DNA from: an uncultured Gammaproteobacteria bacterium
GTDB taxonomy: Bacteria > Patescibacteriota > Patescibacteriia > SG8-24
Length of the DNA stretch: 64,000 nucleotides
Direction of reading: 5' to 3'
Assembly (NCBI GenBank): GCA_964491475.1
Contig: CAZBFO010000003.1
Location: 253,293-317,292, forward strand
Shown: in pieces, positions 18,842 to 62,989 of the stretch
How positions within the stretch are numbered: position 1 is the stretch's first letter
Layout of the letters: each line of letters opens with the position of its first letter
Notes under the pieces: model-generated
Databases searched by the model: none
Told to the model about the DNA's origin: nothing
The model's input: only the letters and a program-made list of their open reading frames with translations
Position numbers and translations under genes: made by a program

Positions 18842-18955
18842 ACTGATTGAGGATAACTGTGCGTGGCTGTCAGCGCGAATGAAAGACGCGCTGATTTTTT
18901 GAGCGAAACGAGCATAATAAAATCAAGCATTTTACGGAGTAATCCACATCACCTT

Positions 18956-18985
18956 TTGGAGGTGGAAGGGGTCTTGCTCTATAAT
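18956..18985 (+). promoter_or_regulatory. candidate promoter of the giant surface-protein gene (-35 TTGGAG, 18-nt spacer, -10 TATAAT)
   Basis: TTGGAG at 18956-18961 and TATAAT at 18980-18985, about 30 nt upstream of the ATG at 19016. Confidence 0.35.
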
Positions 18986-19015
18986 AGGCGTGTACTCATT
19001 TTTCGCGCCAAGTTC

Positions 19016-34000: not shown

Positions 34001-35683
34001 GACCGCAATTTCACCCTCGTCCGCATGAACGGCGCCTGGAGGCTCATCGGTTCGAGCGGCGACGGCACCGGCGGCGTCGGCTCCGGTTCGATTATCAAGT
34101 ACAAGTCCGCTGACCAAAGCAGCGTCACCACGACGCTGGCCAATGACTCCGACATGTTCTGGAACATCGGCGCCAACGAGAACTGGTCGGGATTCTTCGC
34201 TGTCCAAGTATTCTCCAACTCGAACAGCCCTGACTTGAACGTCGCCATCACCGCCCCGTCCGGCGCGACTTGCGACATGAGCTACACGCTTCTGAATACG
34301 CCCTCATCCGGAGCGCAGGCCAATCTGGGTTGCGGCACGCGCTCCGCGCAGATCGCTCTCGGCGCCAACACCGAAAACATCCTCTTCATCAGCGCCAACA
34401 TCAGCAACGGCAGTACTGCCGGCTCGGTCAACCTGCAGTTCTCGCAGGACACCGTTGACGCCACCCATGCGACCATCTTCCGACAGGGTTCCTACACCAA
34501 CGCCTTCCGCTCCACCGGCGCGGACGTCGCCGAAGCCTATTACACCGCCGACAGCAGCATGAATGCCGGCGACGTGGTCGCGCTCGATCCGTCGTTCCGC
34601 GCCGGCGTCCGCAAGACCGCCTCGGCCTACGATGCCGGAACCCTCGGCGTCATCACTAGCATGCCCGGACTGGCGCTTAGCGATCCGCTGCGTCCGCAAC
34701 CGGCCGGTACCCGCACCGTCTTCATGGCCCTTAACGGCCGCGTGCCGGTGAAGGTCAGCGACGAGAGCGGCCCGATTGCCGCCGGTGACTTCCTTGCCGC
34801 GTCTTCGACGCCCGGCGTGGCCATGAAGGCCGCCAAGGCCGGACCGGTCATCGGTCGCGCCCTCACGGACTGGGCCGGCACCGGTACGGGAAGCGTCGAC
34901 ATGATCATCTCGCCCGCGCAGCAGAACGCCATCGTGACGCGCGCTGCCGACCCGACCAAGACCGCCGACCAGATCAACTCGGACATCCTGGCCGCCGTTT
35001 CCGCGCAGACCTACGCGCCCGACCAGAGCACCACCGAGCTGAACGTCGACCGCGTGGTCGCCGGCCTGTCAATCATCTCCGACAAGGGCATCTTCAACGG
35101 CCTGACGGTCGACTCCATCGGTTCGCTGCATGACGCCATCACCCTGGCCTCGGATGCGGTCTTCATCGGCCGCCCGTACTTCAACAGCGACACTGCCGGC
35201 TTTGCGGTCATCACCCCCGGCGACAGCAGCGTCAACGTGACCTTCGACAAGCCCTACGAGACGACTCCCGTGGTCAGCGCCACCTTGTCCTTCGACGGCG
35301 ACGCGCCGAGCGACTGGCAGAACATCCGCTACGTGGTCACCGACAAGTCGGTCAACGGCTTCACCATCCGGATGTACCAGCCGATCGGCCAGGACGTGAA
35401 GTTCAGCTGGATCGCGCTGGCGGTAAAGGACGCGCGCACCGCAAAGTCGACTGGCACGACCGCTTCAGTCAGCGTGCCTGCTCCGAGCGGCACGCCGGCG
35501 GGGGATACGGGCACCGGCGACTCCGGCTCGTTCTCCTCGACGACGACCTCTGACGCAGCTCCTTCGAGCGATGCTTCGTCGTCCGATGCCGGCGCGGCGA
35601 GCGCGCCGGCAGATACGGGCGCCGCTGCGCCCACGTCCGATGCTCCTGCATCCGACGCGTCTGCGCCGAGCGCGACCAACTGA
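19016..35683 (+). CDS. giant secreted repeat protein (about 5,555 aa) with tail-fibre-like Thr/Ser/Gly beta repeats and a C-terminal H-type-lectin-like module
   Basis: Single uninterrupted 16.7-kb reading frame. Signal peptide MHFWRNIFRKLLSLAIGVSFVFFGLASAANA. Dozens of reiterated modules: …LDLSTQTTG.I.LTTQV(S/T)GVLPIANGGTNN…, …ADLTAARTWTLPNASGTFAVSASAPISLSAAGNISC(S/P)TC…, …TGRGA(S/T)TSTA…GGATVRGLTVDSATAT…ILTSIA…. A module NP(S/T)FT.VT…NIGN…T(T)NI(Y/F)GTL.L.G.F.P.VDNTY(E/D)LG…LRWKDVWVGPGSYKLSSTTG recurs three times. The C-terminal part contains NGYMYYNGSTNKFRCYENGAWKDC and ends with VNVTFDKPYETTPVVSATLSFDGD…NGFTIRMYQPIG…SWIALAV followed by an acidic Ala/Ser/Pro-rich tail. Confidence 0.85.
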   Translation: MHFWRNIFRKLLSLAIGVSFVFFGLASAANAAVGVPKILSHQGRLLDASQNLLGGAGTNYCFRFSLYDDAAVGGPDVQLWPAGAPSTMTVNVKNGVYNVGVGDVAAGGDLLDYDFQSGDAAYLNIEVANSVAGSCVGVISFENLSPRQRVMSAGYAINSDTVDGFHAKQSADGNFIPALTSGNLILGATNPQINSTGANALVLQGGAATGDVQFFSSLNKLTSAGDLTVAGTVTNAGVIINGATTDIKTGANEDLALDASGTGNIVFVGVDCSGYANGGKLTTNASGVVTCANDDSTSGGGTVTSIDGSGGTTGLTFSGGPVTTSGTLTLGGTLGAANGGTGLTSFTVGDILYASGPTTFSKLGIGSAGQVLKVAGGIPTWGTDNNTTYTAGTGISISLGNVISNTGVVSEADTLATVTGRGATTSTASSFNGGASVRGLTVDSATVTNDKILVSITTVGGASFNGTITNADLTAARTYTLPDVTGTFIVTGSAAGGDLTGTYPNPTIAADAVALGTDTTGNYVATVSGGGPISVSGTGEGAAVTVSCPTCLVTGGSLWTLAASAGSDSTISQGDTATFAAGSSKVTTTNDGAGTVSIDVAEANLNLNNIGGSLDLSTQTTGTISLTTQVTGVLPIANGGTNGSSFTTNTLTYFDGTSIVSTGINPSSVVTTTNVSSNAVTSVTAGNGLTGGGGPGAITVHVGAGNGIAVAANDVSVAVTSSGTTATTSSNSGIESTSTGIRLLGGCTGGEILKWNSGTSTWDCSADSTAGTLTARETDGSPSLAATTIEFGPTSSSDDEFVVTNEGSGVARVRTGTKIPRTDVAATVTGGWTFNSATSFTSTVDASGATFLGATPLIFEGGTVDAFKTAFNITDPTASNTITFPDASGTVAVSASGPISLSAAGNISCPTCLVSGSSLWTSAGDVGSFAVSQGGTATFAGGLGIDTSAAGSTVTIAVDESALDLANIGGFLDLSTQTTGTISLTTQVSGVLPIANGGTNNTSFTANRLTYFDGTKIASTSIDPANVLVSGGSLYTLAATSGSNSTISQGGTATIAAGTDISTTGNGSGTVTIADTSTLSSVTGRGASTSTAVSLNGGATVRGLTVDSATATEDRILTSIAATGAARFDGTITNADLTAARTWTLPNASGTFAVSASAPISLSAAGNVSCPTCLTSGSTVFTLAATSGSSQALASGDTITIAAGSNVTTTAGATDTVTVAVVSNPTFTTVTATDVDNAATLNLGASSTTVNIGNPSSTTNIYGTLSLAGDFAPSVDNTYELGTASLRWKDVWVGPGSYKLSSTAGNSGSGTDYTLGSLSFSGTDLVLKSDVVGLGTQGSLRLTTASNYGVVVGPSGEVSVGFGGSNLGAGIVHTDAFGVLSSSALDLTAEVGTSVLPIANGGTNNTSFTANRLTYFDGTKIASTTINPANVLLSGGSLFTAAATSGSNSTILQGGTLTLAAGTDISTTGSGSGTVTVADTSTLASVTGRGATTSTAITLTGGATISGGVDLSSAILAGTNPLVFDGTTVDANTTALSFVDPTGTNVITFPDASGYVLLSGGNLFTLAGSSGSNSTINQGGTATVAGASGRVSATGNGSGTVTIDVIESGLSLASMGGSLDLTTQVSGVLPIANGGSNSSGPFVTGELLSFDGSSFVSSGISAASVVTSGTAAGGDLTGFYPNPTVAANAVALGTDTTGNYVATVAGSGPISVAGSGGESANVTVSCPTCVTTSSSNVWTLSGSTGTSTAIGYGDTATVAAGSSKVSSVGDGAGSVAIDVVEANLNLNNIGGSLDLSTQTTGQIDLTTQVTGVLPIANGGTNNTGFTTNRLVYFDGSQLTSTSINPTDVLLSGGSLFSTAGNSGTSTISQGGTLSILGGTDVTTTDDGSGNITVDDTSTLASVTGRGSSTSTAVSLNGGASVRGLTVDDVTATHDRILTSIAATGAVRFDGTITNADLTAARTWTLPNASGTFAVSASAPISLSAAGNISCSTCLVSGGSLFSSLGDTGTSSISQGGSLKIAGGSNITTSDNGAGIITVATSANPSFTSVTSDTFDSSSTTLNLGPTNATTINIGNGGSTTNIFGTLVLDGGFNPAVDNTYDLGSPALRWKTVYVGPGSYHLTSTTGTSGSGANYTDGSLAFGGTNLKLATAAVGTGAIGSLQLTTGSNAGVNVDSTGKVGVGTASPTALLSVGSASDFTVDNSGNVTASGDAAVNGGNLTTTASTGNLFSTNATTVNLGDAADTVNLAGGSGSTGCTIDLNGNFSCTGSVTGGGTVGGSGAQYHTAVWASANTLADVGPGTAGQLLISQGGSAYPAYTTVSGDATINGSGVLTISANAVALGTDTTGNYVASVSATGPISISGTPGEGWTPNVSCPTCVTTSSTGVWTLSGSTGSSTSINYGDTATVAAGSSKVSAVGSGTGSVAIDVVEANLNLNSIGGSLDLSTQTTGFLSLTTQVTGVLPIANGGTNNTSFTTNRLTYFDGTKIASTAIDPSTVLVSGSALFNSAGDTGTSSVSQGDTLTFVGGTDVSTADDGARNVTINDISTLATVTGRGATTSTAVTLTGGATVRGLTVDSSTATNDKILTSITTVGAASFNGTITNADLTAARTWTLPNASGTFAVSASAPISLSAAGNISCSTCVTTGGSLFTLAGSTGSNSTISQGGTATIAAGSSKVTAAGNGTGTVSIDVVEANLNLNNIGGSLDLSTQTTGTIDLTTQVSGVLPIANGGSNADGTGYTANRLLAFDGTSFVTTSINPANVLLSGGSLFTSQGDSGSSTISQGGTLKVAGGTDVTTSDSGSGVITVNDSSTLASVTGRGASTSTASSFNGGATVRGLTVDSATATEDRILTSVAATGAARFDGTITNADLTAARTWTLPNASGTFAVSASAPIALSAAGNISCSTCVTTATTLFNFAGTSGSASTITSGGTATVTAGTNMTTTGSGGSGSGAVTVAVVANPSFTSVTSDTFDSSSTTLNLGPTNATTINIGNGGSTTNIYGTLSLAGDFSPSVDNTYELGAEQLRWKDVWVGPGSYKLSSTTGTSGSGTDYTLGSLSFGGTNMVLKTEAVGAGVTGSVQVTTGSNVGLNVDSTGKVGINTASPSAAFAVGTGSPFTVDNSGNVITSGNATVNGDTALGDAATDGITLTGEVRGASPIRFEGATNDNTYTTIAVVDPTASRTINLPNASGTFAVSASAPLSLSAAGNLTCSTCVTTSSTGVWTLAGSTGSSTSINYGDTATVAAGSSKVSAVGSGSGSVAIDVVEANLNLANIGGSLDLTTQVTGVLPIANGGTNNTSFTTNRLTYFDGTSIASTTINPSNVLLSGGSLFTAAATSGSSSTISQGGTLTLAAGTDISTTGNGSGTVTVADTSTLATVTGRGATTSTAVSLTGGATVRGETIDTATATDDLIAVSVTAGGAARFTGTVTNADLTAARTWTLPNASGTFAVSASAPITLSAAGDIGCSTCLTTGSNIFTLAGTSGSNQTLTNGDTITIAAGTNITTTGGATDTVTVATVANPTFSTSVTTPSVDNGASGITIGSGSGTTTITSSNWGVSSAGAISGLTGISSSGTVTLTGLTASRFVTTDGSSNLTTSQNSAALSATLTDETGSGAAVFGTSPAITTSLTTGSASFDLLNATATTVNFAGAATTLAIGAATGTATVNNATVTLANATTVNVNGASPSIVTSSAGTASVFNTNATTLNMGGAATTVAIGVAGASGTMNLMGGSGSTGCTVDGSNGNLACSGTITSTATSGNIGWWNRTGTTLSPSNSGDNVTTSGNVSTTGSGTITSAALLTASNGFTQTTGATNVTGTSGSIALTGFGSTSITSTNSGSNAFSLSDSALTTASLASLTSTNNSAANTAWSADVFNVTNAQGTTAVSTGSIAGVDVQFTQGTTVAGNNDTALRVNLAQNNSSSTDATLSSLVSLANNDTATGNQITVTDGLNIAGANVTNGINLSGTFGTNLITSSNFSVTQAGLVTTADDIAVNGADVTTTSSGTATLFNTNATTLNAGGAATTVNVGIAGASGTMALMGGSGSTGCTVDGSNGNFTCSGTITSTATSGNLGWWNRTGTTLSPVNAGDNVTTTGNVSTTSSGTITSAGTLTASNGFTQTTGATSVTGTSGSIALTGFGSTAITSTTATGNVFNLADTSLTTGTGFRSATTSTATTNTAFSANVFAATFAQATAANTSGVNGLDVQWTQNPTVAGNTNESMLRLQNQLVNSTTDTSVANGLLIDNADTSATGSTAITNAINISQSGGLATTAAYTNYLNATNWSVTSAGAETLASDLAVNGGNLTSSATTFNLLNSGVTTLNEGGAATTVAIGIAGASGTMDLMGGSGSTGCTINGSNGNLTCSGTISGTFAVKWSDLQNPTANESLAMGANTSTFTYNATTGAGVNLYTLVDTASNTGTGYILSAETAASSAAKPFRVVARANTIIDTTSTGGVTIGNATAAQAVTVDAGTATLNFGNSNNARAINIGTGTAVDTIHIGDGGTGADVITIGSNVAGQTLALDAGTGAAAITIGNSATAHGIQIGTGAAVQTISIGSTNSTSATTVSAGSGNLALTATSGGVNLSTTTSGTINFQPLGSGTTGIVQVGAGGAGSTTPDLLAVDVKSNAGDPATTQNGYMYYNGSTNKFRCYENGAWKDCDTNTGSAPRLDQIIAATAANTIANANFAQTWNWGTLTTQTAMTFGGGSAMTTGSVFNLSGGTYVHTGTVTETGSLATLNVTDSSSNTGGNPVTNGLLITPTFSTTASAGTKVLNGLKVDPTLTSCGTTAGTCTLSDIVANTPALTQTTTNTMNINALQLPTAGALVQNTAAGTINWNGLTMQMPNITQTTGTVTSTGVKVTGGTVTSGTSYAFVSDSNAGNVGVGTLTPTRTLDVNGNMGGSSVTSAQSLTSTQTVTVSTKAVAFYLSEDSTTTNSDVDITFNLTGLPDVDGTYAFFYLSAKKGVTTNAHLTTVDVSINGNAITNALVKSSTATVASTIDRNFTLVRMNGAWRLIGSSGDGTGGVGSGSIIKYKSADQSSVTTTLANDSDMFWNIGANENWSGFFAVQVFSNSNSPDLNVAITAPSGATCDMSYTLLNTPSSGAQANLGCGTRSAQIALGANTENILFISANISNGSTAGSVNLQFSQDTVDATHATIFRQGSYTNAFRSTGADVAEAYYTADSSMNAGDVVALDPSFRAGVRKTASAYDAGTLGVITSMPGLALSDPLRPQPAGTRTVFMALNGRVPVKVSDESGPIAAGDFLAASSTPGVAMKAAKAGPVIGRALTDWAGTGTGSVDMIISPAQQNAIVTRAADPTKTADQINSDILAAVSAQTYAPDQSTTELNVDRVVAGLSIISDKGIFNGLTVDSIGSLHDAITLASDAVFIGRPYFNSDTAGFAVITPGDSSVNVTFDKPYETTPVVSATLSFDGDAPSDWQNIRYVVTDKSVNGFTIRMYQPIGQDVKFSWIALAVKDARTAKSTGTTASVSVPAPSGTPAGDTGTGDSGSFSSTTTSDAAPSSDASSSDAGAASAPADTGAAAPTSDAPASDASAPSATN
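22680..29650 (+). repeat. mosaic coding super-repeats (about 2.5-2.8 kb units built from shorter ~0.6-0.7 kb modules) within the giant gene, with long near-identical DNA stretches
   Basis: For example, 25150-25270 and 27905-28025 are almost identical (…CACCTCGGTCAC(T/C)TCCGACACCTTCGACAGCTC…ACCATCAACATCGGCAACGGCGGATCGACCACCAACATCT…). GCCGACCTGACCGCAGCCCGCACCTGGACGCTCCCGAACGCCAGCGGCACCTTCGCGGTGTCG recurs at about 22425, 24885, 26826, 27625 and 29305. Boundaries are approximate. Confidence 0.6.
30110..32100 (+). repeat. second coding repeat family (three ~0.9-kb units) within the giant gene
   Basis: ATTLN.GGAATTV.IG.AGASGTM.LMGGSGSTGCT(V/I)DGSNGN..CSGTI recurs at about 30115, 31045 and 31955 with identical DNA cores (GGCGGCTCCGGCTCCACCGGCTGCACCGTCGACGG). 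Boundaries are approximate. Confidence 0.55.
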
Positions 35684-52415: not shown

Positions 52416-53031
52416 TCACCGATGACGGCGGTGCGGACGGTGCGACGGTGCGGGCGGGGGATCTTCCTGCGTGCAGGCCTGCGGGTCCCACAGGCCGCGC
52501 CGCGCATCTCGCGCTTCCGCTTCGGCGGTGCGGAACTGTTCGCGCTTGGCGTAGTTGCGGCCGTAGCCGTTCTCATGGGCGAAGCCTTCGCGGACCAGCA
52601 GCTCGTTCACGTCGGTGCCGTCAGCCAGGTAGACGTAGCGGAGCAGGCGTCCGTACTTGTCGCGGTCGCCGGCTTGCGGGTCCGCTTCCAAACGGACGGT
52701 CTTGCCTTCGACCAGCTCGTGCGTGCGTCGCGAAGCTTCCTTGCCGAAGCACTCCACCGGTTTGCGCGGGTCGACGGTTTCGGGCGTGTTGATGCCGATG
52801 AGACGGACCTTCTCGTTGCCGCCGGCCGTTGCCACTACGATGGTGTCGCCGTCGACGACGCGTTCCACCTGGAACGTGCCGATGCGACGGACGTCATCGG
52901 TCACGGCGGCCGGCCCGTTCCGGAGCCAGTGACCCAGAAAGATGCCGGCCGCGATTGCCACGGCTATCGCGGTGCCGATGAAGAGAATGCTCCTCTTCAG
53001 TCGCTCGGGAGAGAACAGCATGCAGTACCTC
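52416..53031 (-). CDS. membrane-anchored thermonuclease (staphylococcal/micrococcal nuclease, SNase-like)
   Basis: Start at the internal ATG with GGAGG upstream. N-terminal transmembrane segment ILFIGTAIAVAIAAGIFLG. SNase core VVDGDTIVV…VRLIGINTPE…GRLLRYVYL…DGTDVNELLVREGFA…KREQFRTAEAEARDARRGLW. Confidence 0.75.
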
Positions 53032-53191
53032 CTCGGGTGTCGCGTGCACGATTCGACGCTAGCCGAAATCGGCCCAAAAGTCAACCGGGCGGCAGGCATC
53101 TGACGATAAACTGTCAGGCCCTTGACATAACTTTCCGGATGTGCCTATAGTTTCGGCATAACTCGCGCATGGGCGCCCAAGATCAAAAAGC

Positions 53192-54997
53192 ATGCCTGGG
53201 AAAAATGCCGCAAAGAACGTAACCGGCAGTCGGGGAGCGTGGTCCGCCATCAGCAACGGCTCGTATGCCGTTCTCGACGAACGGACGCTTTCCGAAGCCG
53301 AATTGAAGGAAATCGCCGAGCAGATCAAGTCTTCGGATTCCTTCGGCACTCTTTTTCACCTTATCGGCGAAATTCCCGTGCGCGGCCGTACGTTTGACTG
53401 GAACGTGGGCGGGCTCCTTCAGCACTTCGACGCGGACGTCGCCTTGAGCGCATTGCAGCACGTTGATGACGCCGCGTCCCTGCATGAGTCGGTCGGTTTG
53501 GCGTGGGTCTTCGGCCAGTATCGCAACCGTCAGCAGGCGATCATCTCGCACCTGTACTCCGTCGTGGCCGAAGCGAAGTCCTCCGAAGCATGGTGGCAGG
53601 CCGCCTTTTCGCTCGAAAAACTGCATGCGGATGACGCGGTAAACCTGCTGAAACGCTCACTGAAGGCGTCCGAACTCAATACGGCCTCGTACTATCTCGG
53701 TCATCTCGAGGACAAACGCTCGCTCATCGGGATTCTTCTCGTCACCGACGAGGAAGCGCTTCAGGCCGTGTATGCCAAGGTGCGCGAGACCTTTTTGGGC
53801 AAGCCCTCCCAGGACGCGCTCGTCAATTGCTGCTGGCTCATCGGGCGTCTGCACCTTTTTGACGACCAGATTGCGGCGAAGCTGATTTCGCTGATGACCA
53901 GCGAGGTCTACTCCGTGAAGTATTACGCGTTCCTCGCGCTGCAGAACAACGCCACCGAAGGGCTCCGCGCTCCGCTCGAAGCGGCCTTGGGAGGCGACGT
54001 GCTTTCGCGCCGTCTGGCGGCACGGGCGCTCCGCGTCGTCTGCAGCGACAGGTCGCTGATCGCCCTCGAGGCCGCGCTCGTCTCCGAGAAGGAACCTGGT
54101 GTCGTTTCGGAAATCACCAAGACCATCTACCGCATCAAGAATCCGCCGCATCGCGAGCGGCAGACCGTCAAGCGGAAGACCAGCATCCTCGAAAACGGGA
54201 CGATGTACGACGAGAACGCCGATCCCTGCATTTACGATCTCTTTGCGCAGGCGCAGGACCCCGAGGGGCTGTGCTTCGATCTGATCCTGAACAGCCTGGG
54301 CAAGAAGCCGAGGGTCAATCCGGTGGTGGCCTCAATGCGGACAGGCGTCGCGCTGCGGAAGATGTTGGCCTCGATGCCCTTCGAGGGGACGCTCCTGGGG
54401 TTCGACCGGTCGCCGCGCATGTGCGCCTACGTGAAGGAAAAAGTGATGCATGAGCAGAAGTTCGCCAAGAAGGTCCGTGTCGTCACCGGCACGTTTTCCG
54501 AGGCGGTGCGGCGCGAAGGCGTCACTTCCGACCTGATCGTCCGCAGCTTCGGCCTTCCCGGCAGCATTCCCGGCGCGATGGCCGTGCTGGCCGAGCTTAA
54601 GGCGGTGCATGAGACGCTGAGCGAAAACGGCGAATACTGGACCATCGGTTGGGACGAGCTGTTCAACGACGGGCTCAATGCCATGGCCTTCAAGTACCTT
54701 CCCGACGGCATTCAGGCCAGGAACTTCGAGGAGTGGCGCGAAGAGCGGGCGCGCAAGGGCATGTCGCGCGACGCCACCGGCCTTACCTGGTTCAAGCGAG
54801 GCCTGCTGGTGCCCCTGCAGTACGGGTCGCTGCAGGATGCGGCCACCGCCATGGGACATCTGTTCGGGCGCGATGCGTCGCAGTACGTCATCAGGAACGT
54901 GAAGACGGAATGGAGCATGTCGGTAGGCATCACCCGGGATACCAAGAAGAGCCTGAAGCGGGTGATTGCCGAGCTGGAAGCGCAGATGGGGGAATGA
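53192..54997 (+). CDS. HEAT/PBS-lyase-like repeat protein fused to a possible class I methyltransferase-like C-terminal domain
   Basis: 601 aa. The N-terminal half has reiterated helical repeats (…SEAWWQAAFSLEKLHADDAVNLLK…LVNCCWLIGRLHLFDDQIAAKLISLMTSEVYSVKYYAFLALQNN…RRLAARALRVV…). The C-terminal half (…LLGFDRSPRMCAYVKEK…KKVRVVTGTFSEAV…DLIVRSFGLPG…) weakly resembles a Rossmann-fold methyltransferase. Confidence 0.45.
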   Translation: MPGKNAAKNVTGSRGAWSAISNGSYAVLDERTLSEAELKEIAEQIKSSDSFGTLFHLIGEIPVRGRTFDWNVGGLLQHFDADVALSALQHVDDAASLHESVGLAWVFGQYRNRQQAIISHLYSVVAEAKSSEAWWQAAFSLEKLHADDAVNLLKRSLKASELNTASYYLGHLEDKRSLIGILLVTDEEALQAVYAKVRETFLGKPSQDALVNCCWLIGRLHLFDDQIAAKLISLMTSEVYSVKYYAFLALQNNATEGLRAPLEAALGGDVLSRRLAARALRVVCSDRSLIALEAALVSEKEPGVVSEITKTIYRIKNPPHRERQTVKRKTSILENGTMYDENADPCIYDLFAQAQDPEGLCFDLILNSLGKKPRVNPVVASMRTGVALRKMLASMPFEGTLLGFDRSPRMCAYVKEKVMHEQKFAKKVRVVTGTFSEAVRREGVTSDLIVRSFGLPGSIPGAMAVLAELKAVHETLSENGEYWTIGWDELFNDGLNAMAFKYLPDGIQARNFEEWREERARKGMSRDATGLTWFKRGLLVPLQYGSLQDAATAMGHLFGRDASQYVIRNVKTEWSMSVGITRDTKKSLKRVIAELEAQMGE

Positions 54998-55092
54998 CGC
55001 CGCCCGAAGGGCGACGGCACGACGGGGCAAAGGAGGTTTGCCGGGTCGTGCCGTCGCCCTTCACACGACGGCGACACAGGAGGTGAGTTTCC

Positions 55093-55986
55093 ATGTCAAA
55101 CGTGCATATCTGCCAAGAGCATAACGACTACGTGTTCGGCATCGCCATGAAGGAGGCGGTCCGGCGGGCGGTCAGCGTCATCCGGCGACAGCGTTTCACC
55201 TTCGAGGCGCAGGCCAAAGAAGGCCTGAGCGGCGCCATGGACGACCTGGTGACCACTGCCGACATCGTGGCGCAGGAAACGTACGTCAAGACGCTGGGTA
55301 AGGCCTTTCCCGCCTGGGGCATCGTGGCCGAAGAAAACGGCCTGTCGGTGGCCTGCCGCATGGAAGGTACCGACGCCTACTTTACCGTCGACCCGCTCGA
55401 CGGCACCAAGGCGTTTGCGCGCGGGCAGTGGGACGGCGTAGGGACGATGATCTCCGCGGTCGTCGACGGGCGCGTGATCGCCGCCTTCGTCGGCGATGCC
55501 GGCGCTCCGGCGATCTACGGCTACCGTCCGAATTCCCCGCACGTGCACCGCGTCGGAGATTTCGACACGCCCGAGCTGCTTCGGATCGACGGGCGACGCC
55601 CGTTGGCGGAACAGAAGGTGCTGGTCCGCATGGACCTGGACATGTACGGCCCGCTGCTCCGCAGGCTGCTGCACCCGAGTTCCGGATCGTTCCGGTCGCT
55701 CGAGCGCGTCAACGGCAGCATCGGCATCGGCATCGCGCGGATGTGGAAGGGCGAGGTCGGAGGTGCGGTGATGGCGCGCGGCGTCACTACCCCGTGGGAC
55801 CTCTGTCCCATCATCGGCATTTCCGAACGGTTGGGTTTCGTCTTCCTCCGTTGCACCGAAAATGACCTGGTTCCGTACAAGCCCGTCGTCAGCAAGAAGA
55901 TCGAACGTGTCGACTTTGACACGCTGATCGTCCACGAGAGCCGCGTCGAAGAAGCGCGTAACGCGCTTCGGCGCATCAAGGCGTAG
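55093..55986 (+). CDS. inositol monophosphatase / FBPase / CysQ-superfamily phosphatase (candidate pAp or NADP(H) phosphatase)
   Basis: Metal-binding motifs GIVAEENG (EE), VDPLDGTKAF (DPxDGT) and WDLCPIIGI (WDxxA/P). GGAGGTGAG Shine-Dalgarno sequence before the ATG. Confidence 0.65.
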   Translation: MSNVHICQEHNDYVFGIAMKEAVRRAVSVIRRQRFTFEAQAKEGLSGAMDDLVTTADIVAQETYVKTLGKAFPAWGIVAEENGLSVACRMEGTDAYFTVDPLDGTKAFARGQWDGVGTMISAVVDGRVIAAFVGDAGAPAIYGYRPNSPHVHRVGDFDTPELLRIDGRRPLAEQKVLVRMDLDMYGPLLRRLLHPSSGSFRSLERVNGSIGIGIARMWKGEVGGAVMARGVTTPWDLCPIIGISERLGFVFLRCTENDLVPYKPVVSKKIERVDFDTLIVHESRVEEARNALRRIKA

Positions 55987-56097
55987 TCGTGCAGCCTTCC
56001 GATGAGATCGGAGGGCTTTTTTATTGACAAAATGCCCTAAAATGCCAAGCTGATTTTATCGCTCATTCCAAGCAAAAGCATAGACGGGAGAAGCCCA

Positions 56098-56760
56098 ATG
56101 AAACCACACGTCAGCGGGCGAGTCGCCATAATGGAAGGTTCAAAATTCAACCTTTCATTGGTGATGACCGCACATGAGTTCGTGCTCGACAATATCCTCG
56201 CCGACGCCGGCCCCATCCAGATGGCGATCGACATGGCTAAGGGCCGTAACCGCTTCGATTGGCCCGCACCCGGCAAGAAGATTGCCAGGCAGATCTGGGA
56301 AAGCCTCAAGGCGCTGCACGACGTCGATGCGCGACCGCTCATGCTGATTGGGCGCGACATTACCGTGCAAGTGCGGCTGCTCGGCAACACTTGGGTCATC
56401 CAGGACGTCGACTCCGGGGAGCTCAAGCTGCACGACGGTAAGCCGCTCACCAGCCTCAACCCTTTGCCGAACATCACGGTGCTTGGTCCTTGGGATGCGT
56501 CCAAAAACGCGTATCGGCTGATGACCGCGGAGCAAGTCGATCGCATCGGCGAGCTCGTCACCGGCCCGCTGGTGCGGCTGAAGCTGGACTTCGAACGCCT
56601 GACGACCGCAAATCATCAGACGCTCAAGTCCGGCTACACCGACTACGCGCGGATTTCGTTTCCGTACGTCAGGTACGGCCTGAGCCGCGAGATCATCACC
56701 GTTCGCTGCGTCTCTTCGGACGGCAAGGAACCGGATCCCACCAGTCACGTGGAGAACTGA
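56098..56760 (+). CDS. hypothetical protein, member A of a tandem paralog pair
   Basis: 220 aa, no recognisable domain. Clearly homologous to the next gene: FDWPAPGKKIARQIWE…ISFPYVRYGLSREIITVRCVSSDGKEPDP versus VDWPYPGKDKVLEAWE…VSFPHSIYGAGEDWLRVRCVRPDGSEVE. Confidence 0.5.
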   Translation: MKPHVSGRVAIMEGSKFNLSLVMTAHEFVLDNILADAGPIQMAIDMAKGRNRFDWPAPGKKIARQIWESLKALHDVDARPLMLIGRDITVQVRLLGNTWVIQDVDSGELKLHDGKPLTSLNPLPNITVLGPWDASKNAYRLMTAEQVDRIGELVTGPLVRLKLDFERLTTANHQTLKSGYTDYARISFPYVRYGLSREIITVRCVSSDGKEPDPTSHVEN

Positions 56761-56761
56761 G

Positions 56762-57433
56762 ATGCTTTTCGGAAAAAAGTCAGCGCCCGTCGTCATCGGC
56801 GGCGCGGCGCCCGTCTTCGGAGAAAAGTTCGACCTCGTCAAGGTGCTCTACGCCTATGAACAGCTGTTCGACGCCCTCACTGCCAGGTTCGGTCACAAGG
56901 GTTCGTCGAGAGTGCAGGGCAGTTACGCTGCCATCGCCGACGGCGTCGACTGGCCGTATCCCGGCAAGGACAAGGTCCTCGAAGCCTGGGAGTTCTGGTC
57001 GCAGCGCTATGACGTCCTGGGGGAGGGCGTGCTGCACCAGGTCGGTCCCGTCGAGTCGCGGGCGTTCGTGCTCGCCCGGAACCGGTACGTCTACGACGCC
57101 GCCAGCCAAAGGCATACGCTCAGCAACGGCCAGCCGCTCGAGTCCCTCGACTCCGGGCCGCAGGTGGCGCTCTATGGCAGGACGCGGGACAACGTCATGA
57201 TCGGCATGAACGAATACCTCGCGGAAAAAGTCCGCGCGATAGTGGTCAGCGATCTCGCCAAGTTCGGCTTCGACTACACCACCGCTTCGTACTCCCGCAC
57301 TCCCAACGTCATCGAAATCGTCGGCTCGGTTTCCTTCCCGCACTCCATCTACGGAGCAGGGGAGGACTGGCTGCGAGTCCGCTGCGTCCGACCCGACGGG
57401 TCAGAGGTGGAGAAGGCGATGGGCGGGAATTAG
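56762..57433 (+). CDS. hypothetical protein, member B of the tandem paralog pair
   Basis: 223 aa. Its ATG lies 1 nt after the TGA of member A (CTGAGATG), suggesting translational coupling. Confidence 0.5.
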   Translation: MLFGKKSAPVVIGGAAPVFGEKFDLVKVLYAYEQLFDALTARFGHKGSSRVQGSYAAIADGVDWPYPGKDKVLEAWEFWSQRYDVLGEGVLHQVGPVESRAFVLARNRYVYDAASQRHTLSNGQPLESLDSGPQVALYGRTRDNVMIGMNEYLAEKVRAIVVSDLAKFGFDYTTASYSRTPNVIEIVGSVSFPHSIYGAGEDWLRVRCVRPDGSEVEKAMGGN

Positions 57434-57517
57434 GACGGATGCGGCCTCCCTACTGGGGGCTGCTTTTTTGTTTCGGTTCCCGATGACGGTTTGCGATCGG
57501 GATGATTTGGGTCGGCG

Positions 57518-57561
57518 TTGACATTGTGCACAGTTTGAGCTACTTTGTGTATCAGTAACAC
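57518..57561 (+). promoter_or_regulatory. candidate promoter (-35 TTGACA, 17-nt spacer, -10 TACTTT) with an overlapping imperfect palindrome GTGTATCAGTAACAC, a candidate NrtR operator
   Basis: TTGACA at 57518-57523. The palindrome at 57547-57561 has half-sites GTGTAT and revcomp GTGTTA, placed at or near the predicted start site directly upstream of nrtR. Confidence 0.35.
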
Positions 57562-57572
57562 GAAGTACCTCT

Positions 57573-58250
57573 ATGCCTTCCGCCATGAATCCGCACCCCT
57601 CCTCGCAGGACATCAAGGTCGCCGCAGACGCGGCAATTTTCACCGTCCAGGACGGGAAGCTCAAGGTGCTGGTTATCGAAATGAAGAAGGCGCCCTTTGC
57701 CGGGCGCTGGGCGCTGCCAGGAGGCCTGATCGACGATCAGGAGACGACGGAGCGCACGGTGCGTCGCGTGCTCAAAGACGAGGCCGGAGTGACTGGTACC
57801 TATCTGGAACAGCTCGGTGCCTTCGACGCGCCCGGTCGCGATCCTTTCGGGCGGGTGGTCAGCGTGGCGTATTTCGCCCTGATTCCTTCTGGTTCCGTGA
57901 CGCTCAAGACCTCACCCAAGTACGCCGCCGTGCGCTGGGCGGCGATCCAGGGCCTCGTCAAGTTGGCGTATGACCACGACGAAGTGCTGCAGGCAGCGGT
58001 GGCCCGCGTCCGCGAACGGCTGGGCTACTCCAACGTGGCCTGGAGCCTGCTGCCGAAGGCCTTCACCCTGGCACAGCTTCAGGAAGTGTATGAGGCCATC
58101 CTCGGAGAGGGCGTGGATAAGCGTAATTTTCGCAAAAAAATCATCGCGTCGGGGCTGCTGGCCCCGACGGGCAAACTGGCGGTCGGCGGCGCACATAGGC
58201 CGGCCGAACTGTTCACTTTCAAGTCCCGTCGGACCGGGTTGACGAAATAG
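57573..58250 (+). CDS. nrtR: NrtR-family transcriptional regulator of NAD metabolism (degenerate Nudix domain + C-terminal winged-helix)
   Basis: Nudix-like box with substituted catalytic glutamates (GRWALPGGLIDDQETTERTVRRVLKDEAGV). C-terminal region LLPKAFTLAQLQEVYEAILGEGVDKRNFRKKI matches the NrtR DNA-binding domain. Heads a cluster of NAD salvage genes. Confidence 0.75.
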   Translation: MPSAMNPHPSSQDIKVAADAAIFTVQDGKLKVLVIEMKKAPFAGRWALPGGLIDDQETTERTVRRVLKDEAGVTGTYLEQLGAFDAPGRDPFGRVVSVAYFALIPSGSVTLKTSPKYAAVRWAAIQGLVKLAYDHDEVLQAAVARVRERLGYSNVAWSLLPKAFTLAQLQEVYEAILGEGVDKRNFRKKIIASGLLAPTGKLAVGGAHRPAELFTFKSRRTGLTK

Positions 58251-58348
58251 TGAAAATCGGCTAACGTCAGCTGTTCTCTTGCTGCATTCGGCGGCAAGGG
58301 GAGAGGCGCTCATTCCACGGCAAAATCCACGACGAAAAAGGAGACATC

Positions 58349-59185
58349 GTGACGAATACCTATCAGCGTGAAGTGTTCCGCGACGACGCGGGGTTCGTGA
58401 TTCGTTCGTTGGCTGCAGATACCAAGCTGGTGATCGGACCGGAGGACGCCATCCTCCATGTCGACATCCAGACAGCCTTCATGACCGACCACGTCCGCGA
58501 TGGCAAGACCATCAGCGGTGGCGGCCTGGGCGTTCCGGGCGGGCACTGCGTCGTCGACGTGGCCCTGCGCAACAGCTCGTTCTTCACGGACGGGCAGCGC
58601 TACTTCAGCCTCGACCGGCATCCGGAAGGGCACGTGGGCGACGTCAACTCGTACGAAGGCTTGGCGCCGTTCACCGACCTCACCGTCGACATGGTTACGG
58701 CCTGGCCGGACGGCAGCCGCATCGTCAGCCCGCACTTCGACCGCGAGTACCTGCTGCGGTATCTGGCCAGCACCCCGACGCACAGGCAGACGCTGTGGCC
58801 GAAGCATGCGCGCAGGGGAACGGCGGAGACCGAACGGCATCCGGCCATGCGGCACCTCACGTGCATGCGCACGCTCGTCAAGGGGCAAGACCCGCGGGTG
58901 GACAGCTACTCGCCGTTCCAGGACAACATCGGTCGTTCGACCGGTCTGGGACAGGAGATGAGAGCCGACGGCGTGAAGCGGCTGTTCATCGACGGCCTCG
59001 CCTACAACGTCTGCGTCGGTCACGCCGCCATCGACGCGTATCTGCTGTTCGGCTTCGAGACCTTTGTCATCAAAGACGCCACGCGGTCGGTGCAGATTCC
59101 CGGCCTCGAGGTGCAGATGGACAACGACCTGGGCCTGTGCCCCGGCGTGCACATCATCACCTCGGACATGTTGGCGTCGGCCTAG
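58349..59185 (+). CDS. isochorismatase-family cysteine hydrolase, candidate nicotinamidase (PncA-like), unusually long
   Basis: GTG start with AAAAAGGAGAC Shine-Dalgarno sequence. Catalytic-type motifs ILHVDIQTAFM (Asp) and RLFIDGLAYNVCVGHAAIDA (Cys). An insertion of about 70 aa is present relative to typical ~200-aa PncA. Its position between nrtR and the NAD synthesis genes supports a nicotinamidase role. Confidence 0.55.
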   Translation: MTNTYQREVFRDDAGFVIRSLAADTKLVIGPEDAILHVDIQTAFMTDHVRDGKTISGGGLGVPGGHCVVDVALRNSSFFTDGQRYFSLDRHPEGHVGDVNSYEGLAPFTDLTVDMVTAWPDGSRIVSPHFDREYLLRYLASTPTHRQTLWPKHARRGTAETERHPAMRHLTCMRTLVKGQDPRVDSYSPFQDNIGRSTGLGQEMRADGVKRLFIDGLAYNVCVGHAAIDAYLLFGFETFVIKDATRSVQIPGLEVQMDNDLGLCPGVHIITSDMLASA

Positions 59186-59375: not shown

Positions 59376-60791
59376 ATGCCGAAACGCGTCGCCATCTACG
59401 GCGGAAGTTTCAATCCGCCGGCGCATCATCGCGGCGTGGTGGAACGGGTGATGCAGCCTGCCTGCAGGCCCCGCATCGACGAACTGGTGGTGGTGCCTTG
59501 CGGCCCGCGACCGGACAAGCTCAAGAACGACGACACCGATCCGGCACACCGCGCCGCGATGTGCGACATCGCCTTTCGCGGGCTGAAGAACGTGCGCTTG
59601 GACCTGTTCGATCTCGAGAACAACGTCTTCACCAGACAGCTGGAGCTGCAGGAACGCTACGCAGCCGATGGAACCGAGGTATGGCACGTCGTCGGGGCCG
59701 ACCTGGTGAAGGGCGGCGCAAAGGGCGAGTCCGACATCCAGAAGAAGTGGACCCGCGGCGCCGAAGTGTGGGAGAACCTGAACTTCATCGTGGTGCGGCG
59801 TGAGGGGTATCCTCTCGATGATGCTGACCTGCCGCCGCGCTGCGAGATTGTCGGCGTGCAGGATGGCGACGGTGTGGATCGGGTTTCGGGGGCGAGCTCG
59901 AAGATTCGGCTAATGATTTACGATCGGGAGCCGTACAAGCATCTGGTGTCGTCAGAGATTCACGACTACATCGAGCGGTACAACTTGTATCGAGGAGCTC
60001 GCGTTGCAAAGACCACCTCCCTCAAGCTGCCTTCGCCGCGCCCGTTCTTCGTCATCGACGTTGGCAATCCCAAGGCCGAGGCGCTGGCGGCGAAGTACGG
60101 CGCCGCCGGAATCGGCGTCGATGAGGAGCGAGCCAACTGCATCGTCTCCGTCGGCGGCGACGGGCACATGCTGCGTACGGTGCGTCAGCACTGGCGGCGG
60201 CGGTTGCCGTTCGTGGGCATCAACGCCGGGCACGTGGGCTACCTGCTCAACGACCAGCAATTGTTCGGCGACCTGCCGGAGCTGCTGGCCGACCTGCGCG
60301 TGCATCTGCTCACGCAGCTGTCGGTCGAGGCGGAGGACTTGGACGGCAACGTCTCGCACCACTACGGGTTCAACGACGCCTGGGTGCGCGACACCGGACA
60401 AGCCGCCTGGCTCGATGTCACCGTGAATGGTCGCGTAGGCCGCATCATCGGCGACGGCGCGCTGGTCTCTACGCCTGCCGGCTCAACCGGTTATGCGTGG
60501 TCGATGGGAGCGCATCCCATTCTCGTCGACGGCGACGAGATTCTGCTGGTGGGCAACAACGTCTGTCGGCCGAGAGGCTGGCAGTTCATGCGACTGCCAA
60601 AGCACACCGTTATCGAACTGGTCGCCGACGGCGGCGACAAGCGCAAAGTCAGCGGATACGTCGACGGCATGCCGCTGGGCTTCGTTCGGAGGATGCGCTG
60701 CACCTCCAGCAAGATCGCTTCGGTCGAGCTGGCCTTCTCGCCGCAACGCGACTTGGCGGCCAAGTTGAGCGACCAGATGTTTCCGGAGTGA
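59376..60791 (+). CDS. bifunctional fusion: nicotinate/nicotinamide mononucleotide adenylyltransferase (NadD-like) + NAD kinase (NadK)
   Basis: N-terminal ~190 aa: VAIYGGSFNPPAHHRGVVE…(H)VVGADLV…VSGASSKIR, matching the nucleotidyltransferase (H/T)xGH and ISSTxIR motifs of NadD. C-terminal ~270 aa: IVSVGGDGHMLRTV (GGDG), FVGINAGHVGYL, and DGALVSTPAGSTGYAWSMGAHPIL (NAD kinase DGxxxxTPTGSTAY motif). Single continuous ORF of 471 aa. Confidence 0.7.
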   Translation: MPKRVAIYGGSFNPPAHHRGVVERVMQPACRPRIDELVVVPCGPRPDKLKNDDTDPAHRAAMCDIAFRGLKNVRLDLFDLENNVFTRQLELQERYAADGTEVWHVVGADLVKGGAKGESDIQKKWTRGAEVWENLNFIVVRREGYPLDDADLPPRCEIVGVQDGDGVDRVSGASSKIRLMIYDREPYKHLVSSEIHDYIERYNLYRGARVAKTTSLKLPSPRPFFVIDVGNPKAEALAAKYGAAGIGVDEERANCIVSVGGDGHMLRTVRQHWRRRLPFVGINAGHVGYLLNDQQLFGDLPELLADLRVHLLTQLSVEAEDLDGNVSHHYGFNDAWVRDTGQAAWLDVTVNGRVGRIIGDGALVSTPAGSTGYAWSMGAHPILVDGDEILLVGNNVCRPRGWQFMRLPKHTVIELVADGGDKRKVSGYVDGMPLGFVRRMRCTSSKIASVELAFSPQRDLAAKLSDQMFPE

Positions 60792-60886: not shown

Positions 60887-61624
60887 ATGGAAAAGAAAGT
60901 CAGCAGCGTGGGAGCGCTGCGCCCCAGCTACGAGCTGGAAGACATCAGGCTGGAACGGCGCGGCTACCTGTCGCTGTTCAGCTATCACGTCGACGGGTTC
61001 GCGCACCGCTTCGAAGTGCTCGATCGCGGGCAGGACGCCGTCATCGTGCTGCCGGTCGATTGGCAGCGGCGGGTGCTGTACCTGATCCGCCAACCGCGCC
61101 CCAACAAGGCGCTGGCGTCGGCCGTCGGCCGCTCCGCTTTGGACACGGCGCGGACCGACCGTTATGTCAGGTTTTGCGCCTCGGACGCCGACGTGCACAC
61201 GCTCGATTCGCCGGCAGGCATGATCGACGGCAAGGAAACTCCCGTCGACGCCGCGATACGCGAAACGTTGGAAGAAACGGGCTTCGTCATCTCCGCCGAA
61301 TCGTTGGCGCAGGTGTCGAGGCACTTCACTTCCACCGGCTGCTCCACCGAGCGGCACGTCTGCTGCTTGGCCTCCGTAACCAAGGACACCGAGCGGCGGC
61401 AGCCGGAAGGCGACGGCGACGAGCACATCGTCACCATCGAAGTGCCCTTCGACGAGGCCTTCGCCATGCTCGACGAGATGCGCGTGGAGCAGTCCACGCT
61501 GGCGGTGCTGCTGCGCGAGGTCAAGCTCCGCGAGCAGGCTCGTGCCATCGCCGAACTGGAATCGCGTTTGCGCGACCAGGCGCTGACCATTCGGCACCTG
61601 ACCGACATGGACGACGGCTTTTGA
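60887..61624 (+). CDS. Nudix hydrolase, ADP-ribose pyrophosphatase-like, with C-terminal coiled-coil tail
   Basis: AAAGGGGGAC before the ATG at 60887. Nudix box PAGMIDGKETPVDAAIRETLEETGFV. The N-terminal beta region (YLSLFSYHVDGFAHRFEVLDRG.DAVIVLPVD) resembles NudF-type ADPRases. C-terminus LREVKLREQARAIAELESRLRDQALTIRHL. Confidence 0.6.
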   Translation: MEKKVSSVGALRPSYELEDIRLERRGYLSLFSYHVDGFAHRFEVLDRGQDAVIVLPVDWQRRVLYLIRQPRPNKALASAVGRSALDTARTDRYVRFCASDADVHTLDSPAGMIDGKETPVDAAIRETLEETGFVISAESLAQVSRHFTSTGCSTERHVCCLASVTKDTERRQPEGDGDEHIVTIEVPFDEAFAMLDEMRVEQSTLAVLLREVKLREQARAIAELESRLRDQALTIRHLTDMDDGF

Positions 61625-61729
61625 CCGCCGACTTCGATTCCCCGGCAAGCTTCCCGCTTGCCCTTCTTCTTCCGCTCACGACTTCCGGTCGTGCGCGGAA
61701 ATCAGAAGGTTCTTTCCACGGAGGCGTTC

Positions 61730-62989
61730 GTGCCCATCATCACGTCATTGCTCGAGGTCGATTTCTACAAGTTCACGATGGCCCAGGTCATCCGCAGGCA
61801 CCATGCCGGCGTGCAGGTCCGGTTCGCCTTCAAGAATCGCAGCAGCAAGACCGACCTGATCGCAAAAGTGGTCGACATCGGCCGGCTGCGCGAGGAGCTG
61901 GAGCATGCGCGCAGCCTGCGGCTGACTCCCGAGGAGATCGACTATCTCCGGCACTGCCCCGGCTATCCCGCCGGGCTGTTCTCCGAGGAGTTTCTCGGGT
62001 TCTTGTCCGAGTTGCGGCTGCCGCCCATTGAGGTCGGCATGCGCGACGGCGAGATCAGCGTCGAGGCGACCGGCGATTGGGAGAGCGTCACCTTCTGGGA
62101 GACGATCGTCCTGAACGTGGTCAACGAGCTGTACTACGACGGCCTGCGCCAACGCGACGGCACGCAAGCCGCCATCGACGATGCCGCCTGGGACCTCCTC
62201 TATCACCCCTTCTGGGATGACGGGCGTCACAAGCTGCGGCAGAAGATCGAGCGCGTCAGGCAGATGCCGTCGGCGCGGATCATCGATTTCGGCAACCGCC
62301 GGCACCACAGCGCCTGGTGGCACGGCGAAGTGCTCAAGGAGCTGGTCAAGGGACTGCCCGGACAGCTGCTCGGCACCTCCTGCGTGCGCCTGGCGAAGAA
62401 GCACGGCATCAAGCCGATCGGCACCTTCGCGCATGAGATGTACATGTGCTATGCCGCGCTCGCGCCGACGTACGACGAGATGGTCCGCTCTCACGCCAAG
62501 GTCCTGAAGGACTGGCGCGAGACGTACGGCGACGAACTGTCCGTCGCGCTGACCGACACCTTCGGCAGCGGATTCTTCTTCCGCTGCATGACCGAGCGGA
62601 TGGCCAAGGACTGGCAGTGGCTGCGCCACGACTCCGGAAGTCCCTACGACTTCGGCGAGCGCGCCATCGGCTTCTACGGGGCGCACGGCATCGATCCCGC
62701 CACCAAGGGCATCGTCTTCAGCGACGGGCTGACGGTCGAGGTCATCGAGAAACTGGTCGCCCAGTTCGACGGTCGCATCAAGTTGGCCTTCGGATGGGGG
62801 ACGGACCTCACCAACGACCTCGGCTACCGGCCGCTGTCGCTGGTGATGAAGGCGGTTGAGGCGGACGGGTACGAGACGGTGAAGCTGTCCGACAATCCCG
62901 CCAAGGCGACGGGCTCGGCGGGCGTCATCAACCTTTACAAACGCCTCTTCCAGTACGAGGAAGGGGAGCGGGAGGAATGCACGTTCTAG
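61730..62989 (+). CDS. pncB: nicotinate phosphoribosyltransferase
   Basis: SLLEVDFYKFTMAQVIRRH parallels E. coli PncB LLDTDAYKLHMQQAVFHHY. A GGAGG precedes an in-frame GTG at 61730, the preferred start. The ORF-track ATG at 61658 is the alternative. Confidence 0.8.
   Translation: MPIITSLLEVDFYKFTMAQVIRRHHAGVQVRFAFKNRSSKTDLIAKVVDIGRLREELEHARSLRLTPEEIDYLRHCPGYPAGLFSEEFLGFLSELRLPPIEVGMRDGEISVEATGDWESVTFWETIVLNVVNELYYDGLRQRDGTQAAIDDAAWDLLYHPFWDDGRHKLRQKIERVRQMPSARIIDFGNRRHHSAWWHGEVLKELVKGLPGQLLGTSCVRLAKKHGIKPIGTFAHEMYMCYAALAPTYDEMVRSHAKVLKDWRETYGDELSVALTDTFGSGFFFRCMTERMAKDWQWLRHDSGSPYDFGERAIGFYGAHGIDPATKGIVFSDGLTVEVIEKLVAQFDGRIKLAFGWGTDLTNDLGYRPLSLVMKAVEADGYETVKLSDNPAKATGSAGVINLYKRLFQYEEGEREECTF

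Follow-up and report, generated by a model that had tools for sequence, protein, structure and literature searches.

The stretch of DNA analysed here (hereafter the window) comprises 64,000 nucleotides of contig CAZBFO010000003.1 (positions 253,293 to 317,292, GenBank assembly GCA_964491475.1), from a bacterium placed in the Patescibacteriota. It carries two adjacent genes, hereafter called A and B, that lie between a gene of the inositol monophosphatase (IMPase) family and a nicotinamide adenine dinucleotide (NAD) salvage operon led by nrtR. Gene A (56098-56760, + strand) encodes a protein of 220 amino acids and gene B (56762-57433, + strand) one of 223 amino acids, neither with a known domain. 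The IMPase-family open reading frame (ORF), of 297 amino acids, occupies 55093-55986 (+ strand), and nrtR, the product of which matches the Pfam families NrtR_WHD (E = 1.4e-23) and NUDIX (E = 6.5e-16), occupies 57573-58250 (+ strand). An earlier note on this DNA, made from the letters and their ORFs, had described the IMPase ORF, the two paralogs, the junction between them and nrtR at these positions, and all of these features were confirmed to be present.

The description of A and B as a translationally coupled pair of paralogs without a recognisable domain also held. The two proteins are true paralogs, with 26% identity over 212 residues (E = 2e-20). Their junction reads GAG AAC TGA G ATG, which leaves a 1-nucleotide spacer between the stop codon of A and the start codon of B, and the Shine-Dalgarno sequence of B (GGAGAA, 56751-56756) lies within the last codons of A. 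Because long chance ORFs are frequent in GC-rich DNA, and several overlap the A-B region, the possibility was considered that A and B are themselves spurious, or else duplicates that are decaying, in a genome rich in GC. However, their GC content by codon position is typical of real genes in the window (0.79-0.84 at third positions, comparable to the adjoining genes), orthologues exist at 37-87% identity and were seen for both proteins in several metagenomes, length and motifs are kept across the family, and the structure predictions are very confident. The conservation refutes this explanation, which we regard as almost certainly wrong.

The A/B protein family

Word-indexed searches of 5.8 billion proteins returned seven homologues of A and six of B. 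An exhaustive profile search, run on 1.84 billion cluster representatives, extended the family to 56 members, 48 of them at E <1e-10 and nearly all 204-240 amino acids long. A species-level genome set contributed one match, in the unclassified groundwater metagenome-assembled genome (MAG) nzgw371, and a metagenome scan for the family yielded seven loci. The only named members are "hypothetical protein" entries from Parcubacteria MAGs. When A, B and 53 family members were scanned individually against Pfam, NCBIfam, PADLOC and PHROGs, no match was obtained. Single-protein and profile searches of the sequences in the PDB gave chance-level hits only (IF3, IL-27 beta and bS6m, E of 0.15 or worse).

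The structures of A and B were predicted with AlphaFold2, as the earlier note had suggested. Both models are confident alpha+beta structures, with a mean per-residue confidence (predicted local distance difference test, pLDDT) of 88.8 and a predicted template modelling score (pTM) of 0.84 for A, and a pLDDT of 94.6 and a pTM of 0.90 for B. No solved relative was matched by either model. Foldseek comparison of both models with the PDB found no neighbour (best E of 0.09-0.2, template modelling (TM) score at most 0.25), and comparison of A with BFVD found none either (TM score at most 0.28). Neither by sequence nor by Foldseek was a clear homologue of known function found, a result in keeping with the earlier view of the pair as proteins of no recognised kind. 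Judged by these searches, the A/B family is an undescribed, small family of proteins of about 220 amino acids from Parcubacteria, very small-celled members of the candidate phyla radiation (CPR), and its newness rests on negative evidence.

Eight positions are conserved in at least 90% of the family: W55 (in the motif WPxPG[KR]), W67, G96 (LLGxxW), P124, G130, F188 (FPH), G194 (YGxG) and C204 (RVRC). The W55 motif forms a strand-loop-helix junction in the model, and C204 is the only cysteine in both proteins of the window. In protein A, several polar positions differ from the family consensus, with His83 replaced by Leu, His190 by Tyr, Glu79 by Arg, both Asp18 and Asp121 by Asn, and Arg201 by Thr. 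Protein B departs from it only at G105A, W108R and T98E, and keeps the His, Glu, Asp and Arg positions together with the cysteine. This alignment pattern suggests that B may be the active protein and A a degenerate partner.

Two other ideas about the family were tried and rejected. An assignment of A-B as an anti-phage defence or toxin-antitoxin pair was set aside, since PADLOC gave no match and the pair lies within a chromosomal block of conserved synteny. An internal duplication was likewise dismissed when profile-profile comparison of the N-terminal with the C-terminal half gave a probability of 0.3%. In addition, 29 of 52 members end in Asn, far above the background frequency of this residue; it lies at the end of a low-confidence tail (encoded at 56758 and 57431 in the window) and might be a docking or modification site.

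CPR bacteria have tiny genomes and depend on salvage, and much of their conserved proteome, including many orphan families, has no assigned function. Among such orphan families the A/B family is unusually well defined and testable. With its confident but unmatched structure, near-invariant cysteine and conserved tandem arrangement, it lends itself well to structure determination and ligand screening.

Transcription units and NrtR control

The A-B pair is bracketed by intrinsic terminators on the + strand. The first follows the IMPase gene (55993-56017) and has an 11-bp stem and then a T-run (TTTTTATT); the second, after B and before nrtR (57441-57463), has a 9-bp stem and then a T-run (TTTTTTGTTT). 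A promoter for A-B was read from the sequence at 56024-56051 (+ strand), with TTGACA at 56024-56029, a 16-nucleotide spacer and an extended -10-like element, TGC-CAAGCT; a strict consensus promoter scan did not report it. The TTGACA...TGCCAAGCT element also precedes A in the related loci L001 and L003 (loci are given here by our own labels), and variants of the TGCCAWNCT type precede family members in L004, L007, L012, L018, L019 and L021. An equivalent hairpin with a T-run follows B in L001, L003, L004, L007, L012 and L019. With its own conserved promoter and terminators, A-B appears to be a self-contained bicistronic unit in every lineage examined.

The nrtR gene has a promoter and a predicted NrtR operator of its own (57518-57566, + strand), in which TTGACA-N17-TACTTT is overlapped by a 25-bp palindrome, ACTTTGTGTATCAGTAACACGAAGT, at 57542-57566. 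Even with up to 3 mismatches allowed, the palindrome occurs only once in the 64 kb, where chance would give 0, and it is kept before nrtR in L001, L003, L007, L019 and L022. NrtR sites have been described as a 21-bp palindrome with a GT-N7-AC core (Rodionov et al. 2008, PMC2330246), and the operator in the window fits this core. The operon downstream is also typical of that regulon. Behind the Nudix-winged-helix regulator lie genes for a PncA-like nicotinamidase (58349-59185, matched by NCBIfam and by Pfam Isochorismatase), a NadD/M-NadK fusion (59376-60791, matched by the NCBIfam NAD kinase and NadD models), an ADP-ribose pyrophosphatase-like Nudix hydrolase of the YffH/AdpP type (60887-61624) and PncB (61658-62989, Pfam NAPRTase), all on the + strand. 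PncA, PncB and a NadD-like adenylyltransferase are thus encoded in the operon, and NadE is not. Since the operator overlaps the nrtR promoter, nrtR would be expected to repress its own operon.

The A-B operon and the IMPase gene differ from this regulon in having no operator and in lying outside the terminator-bounded unit. A weight matrix was built from the five nrtR-proximal operators and applied to the 250 nucleotides upstream of A in seven loci. In every locus a single site, that before nrtR, reached 33-38 bits, whereas upstream of A the matrix scored -5.3 bits in the window and at most -0.9 bits in the six other loci. A pattern search of the 64 kb showed no NrtR operator before the IMPase gene either. 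The earlier note had put A and B forward as candidate members of the NAD/ADP-ribose regulon. With terminators on both sides, a promoter of its own and no operator before A in seven loci, direct regulation of A-B by NrtR is not supported, and that proposal was not borne out. An Rfam scan of the window found no riboswitch and no other RNA family, and no paper in the literature library searched combines NrtR with Parcubacteria.

Two further observations concern the sequence around these promoters. The region around the nrtR stop codon (58235-58290, AAATCGGCTAACGTCAGCTGTTCTCTTGC) is conserved across the window, L001, L003 and L007, and looks like an internal promoter (TTGACG...TAACGT) with a leader hairpin for pncA. 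Given this putative promoter, the genes after nrtR may not depend on the nrtR promoter alone. An 11-mer, CGCTCATTCCA, occurs at 56060-56070 and 58307-58317, about 30-40 nucleotides before the starts of A and pncA. It was rejected as a shared regulatory motif because two occurrences against 1.5 expected is at chance level and because it is not conserved in relatives.

The IMPase-family gene and its insertion

The IMPase-family protein matches Pfam Inositol_P (PF00459) over residues 20-260 with 65.3 bits against a cut-off of 27 (E = 8.2e-18). Its metal-site motifs, read in the translation, are intact: the acidic EE (VAEENG), DPLDGT and the C-terminal WD (PWD). The best relatives in the PDB are SuhB/IMPase proteins (E of about 1e-7), with DPLDGT aligned to the SuhB motif. 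Against the NCBIfam equivalog models the protein scored 21-46 bits, with HisN, CysQ and SuhB the best, where 229-379 bits are required. It therefore shares the profile, the DPLDGT loop and the WD motif of the IMPase/CysQ/SuhB superfamily but forms a separate subfamily below the equivalog cut-offs. At least 557 homologues were found, the best of them (other than the protein itself) at 56% identity, and they occur in Patescibacteria and in some MAGs of Myxococcota and Proteobacteria.

In L001 and L003, the PBP1A (a class A penicillin-binding protein) of which is 82-89% identical to that of the window, the gene order is PBP1A, a staphylococcal nuclease (SNase) homologue or small ORFs, A, B and nrtR. 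The IMPase gene is missing from both loci, as is the ORF that precedes it in the window (53192-54997, + strand). The latter encodes 601 amino acids with weak matches to HEAT_2 (E = 6.5e-5) and Methyltransf_25 (E = 1.7e-4), both under the Pfam cut-off. As both genes are absent from these syntenic loci, they appear to be a local insertion of about 2.9 kb (53192-55986). Homology of the HEAT/methyltransferase ORF to the large genes beside the IMPase homologue in L015 or beside A-B in L004 was considered and rejected, as none was found.

The earlier note had also suggested that the IMPase-family protein acts on NADP and so completes a set of NAD(P)-cycling enzymes. A dedicated NADP(H) phosphatase opposing the NadK domain would have some precedent. 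Enzymes of the IMPase/CysQ group have promiscuous NADP(H) phosphatase activity, and MJ0917 is a fusion of such a domain with NAD kinase (PMC8553519). The catalytic motifs of the protein are intact, and the gene ends 3.39 kb before the NadD/M-NadK fusion, as had been noted. As in the archaeal fusion, an IMPase-fold gene and a NAD kinase domain are found within one 5-kb neighbourhood. Here, however, the kinase is fused to a NadD/NadM-like adenylyltransferase, and the phosphatase is a separate, non-conserved and separately terminated gene, with two terminators and the A-B unit between it and the NAD operon. It is found at this position in no related locus. No match was obtained to NF010678, the model for the bifunctional NADP phosphatase/NAD kinase, of which only positions 346-484 were matched, by the NadK domain of the neighbouring fusion; the scores against HisN, CysQ and SuhB fall far under their cut-offs. 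Two homologues on long contigs, with about 50% identity, have unrelated neighbours outside NAD metabolism. In L013 these include gyrA and the DNA-repair genes for an HhH-GPD glycosylase and RuvC, and in L015 (6001-12915, a Patescibacteria MAG) a homologue with 49% identity heads a cluster of an AAA_17 kinase, dCMP deaminase, dUTPase, FolD, Tmk (thymidylate kinase) and SHMT. The context thus does not support a dedicated NADP phosphatase, which we consider improbable; like other enzymes of its group, the protein may still have promiscuous activity on NADP(H). The deoxynucleotide cluster in L015 hints at a nucleotide substrate for this subfamily. A further homologue, P0094 (500 amino acids), has an N-terminal extension without a Pfam domain and was uninformative.

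Side observations were made on the insertion and its borders. The HEAT/methyltransferase ORF has a promoter of its own, TTGACA-N18-TATAGT, at about 53123-53152. Between this ORF and the IMPase gene lies a near-perfect stem-loop of about 24 bp (55006-55062, + strand) that is not followed by a T-run. The folded region 54990-55095 has a free energy of -62.6 kcal/mol (z = -6.4), and none of 200 shuffled sequences was as stable. The SNase homologue of the window (52416-53099, - strand) is divergently transcribed between PBP1A and the insertion; its product has an N-terminal hydrophobic segment and is kept in L003 at 77% identity. This nuclease homologue could be secreted or anchored and serve to scavenge nucleotides.

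Origin and possible role of the A-B pair

Neighbour-joining analysis placed the A-type proteins in one clade and the B-type proteins in another, and both clades contain the orthologues from the window, L001, L003, L004, L007, L018 and L019. A precedes B directly in all eight distinct loci in which both genes are visible, and in the other tandem pairs with both gene ends read the gap between them ranges from an overlap to 12 nucleotides. Further tandem sets, namely a pair in L012 (7384-8654; hhalign probability 99.4%), a pair in L021 and a triple in L026 (351-2497, the last two genes overlapping), indicate that tandem multiplication of the family has been recurrent. In one subclade an acidic A (isoelectric point of about 5) is combined with a basic B (isoelectric point 9.1-9.7). 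As A and B represent lineages of long standing that have stayed in tandem, the proteins most likely form a hetero-oligomer, and their lack of an evident signal peptide or transmembrane segment suggests that it would be cytoplasmic.

Family members lie directly upstream of nrtR or NAD-salvage genes in the window, L001, L003, L007, L019 and L022, the last with the full order nrtR-pncA-nadMK-Nudix-pncB. In L025 a B-like member with 25% identity directly precedes a gene for a PncA-like isochorismatase, with no nrtR between them. No NAD gene is near the family members in L004, L008/9, L010, L012, L017 and L023. The neighbours of A-B in L004 are genes for a kinase, a Ham1-methyltransferase and ThyA, and in L008/9, L010, L012 and L017 neither NAD genes nor PBP1A are found nearby. 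PBP1A lies upstream of the family in the window, L001, L003, L007, L018, L020, L021 and L023/24. The window and L001 also share a longer block with genes for PMSR, a C39-like peptidase, a PUA-methyltransferase, a TPR protein and PBP1A, and this long synteny block suggests that much of the adjacency of A-B is inherited gene order. The association with NAD metabolism that the earlier note had proposed survives as a weak link, in that seven contexts adjoin NAD-salvage genes; the operator is absent, however, and adjacency to PBP1A is equally conserved.

On balance, the arrangement is somewhat better explained than not by three independent units that share only their location, with A-B a probable hetero-oligomer that is not directly regulated by NrtR and the gene order inherited. 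The first unit would be an accessory insertion of the HEAT/methyltransferase gene and the divergent IMPase-family phosphatase gene. The second would be the bicistronic A-B operon, with its own sigma-70-type promoter, strong ribosome-binding sites, the 1-nucleotide junction and its own terminator, and the third the nrtR-led NAD salvage operon, with a single NrtR operator over its own promoter. A and B would be made in equal amounts. The simplest interpretation is that the ancestral protein was a homo-oligomer and that, in the paired clades, a hetero-oligomer of co-translated A and B took its place. In the alignment, B would carry a conserved candidate polar site of two His, a Glu, Asp residues, an Arg, the near-invariant Cys and two Trp, much of which A would have lost while keeping the Cys. 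Our best guess for the role of A-B is small-molecule binding or thiol-dependent catalysis.

Paralogous heteromers that replace homo-oligomers are a general evolutionary pattern. A and B share with it anciently diverged copies of one domain, adjacent genes, translational coupling and the degeneration of one copy at polar positions. They differ in that their heteromer is a predicted one and in having a domain without a relative by sequence or by Foldseek.

Several points weigh against three units joined by location and a cytoplasmic heteromer. Single-copy family members exist, so that a heteromer is not obligatory for the fold, and the cytoplasmic location was read from the N-termini by inspection. 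Without an operator, A-B might still be coupled to the NAD operon indirectly or post-transcriptionally. Adjacency to NAD genes persists at 25-40% family identity, L025 included, and could reflect function; given such persistence, A-B may have a functional link to NAD salvage or to PBP1A.

If the link were to NAD salvage, A-B could be a functional accessory of NAD/ADP-ribose metabolism tied to it by location rather than by NrtR, for example in a step that the operon does not encode, such as the amidation of nicotinic acid adenine dinucleotide (NaAD), or in the handling or sensing of a pyridine-nucleotide product. The pair is found directly before nrtR in the window and five other loci (L001, L003, L007, L019 and L022) at identities down to 37-40%, the 25%-identical member in L025 abuts a PncA-like gene, and the operon encodes PncA, PncB and a NadD-like adenylyltransferase without NadE. 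The conserved Trp and the largely conserved basic residue of WPxPGK would suit a nucleotide ligand. Against this, no NrtR operator precedes A in the seven loci, terminators separate the units, the members in L004, L012, L008/9, L010, L017 and L023 have no nearby NAD gene, and the block is tied equally to PBP1A upstream. Inspection of the sequences showed neither an ATP-binding nor a PP-loop motif, and nadE may be elsewhere in the genome. We consider an accessory role of this kind unlikely. Slightly less likely still is the stronger proposal that A/B is a heteromer of unseen fold, confined to Parcubacteria, that performs or controls an otherwise apparently missing step of pyridine-nucleotide salvage, such as an ATP-pyrophosphatase-independent conversion of NaAD to NAD or a Cys-dependent activity on NAD or ADP-ribose. 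If true, it would explain why the genes stay beside pncA or nrtR even at 25% family identity. Another possibility is a functional tie of the family to PBP1A, in which its proteins might, for instance, work with the cell-wall synthesis machinery from the cytoplasm and the NAD operon would be incidental. It is favoured by PBP1A being directly or closely upstream in the window and seven further contexts (L001, L003, L007, L018, L020, L021 and L023/24), single-copy and very divergent members included, and by this adjacency covering more of the family tree than adjacency to nrtR. However, PBP1A and the family gene are always transcribed separately, being divided by a terminator and a promoter, and other genes intervene in the window, L001, L003 and L020. 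PBP1A acts outside the membrane, but inspection of A and B revealed no obvious signal peptide or membrane segment, and the long-range synteny of the window and L001 shows whole blocks to be inherited. This tie, too, seems quite unlikely.

A role of the family in NAD salvage or in cell-wall synthesis would mean a lineage-specific solution to an essential function; without such a role it is nonetheless a candidate new fold. The negative findings guard against annotating the IMPase-family gene and A-B, by proximity only, as parts of the NrtR regulon or of NADP cycling.

One other feature of the window was noted away from this locus. A + strand ORF of 5606 amino acids spans 18863-35683, where the GC skew is strongly negative and ORFs on the - strand have gene-like GC content at third codon positions. 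Two of these - strand ORFs (738 and 787 amino acids) gave no Pfam match. The long + strand ORF is probably no gene but an artefact that runs antisense to GC-rich - strand genes.

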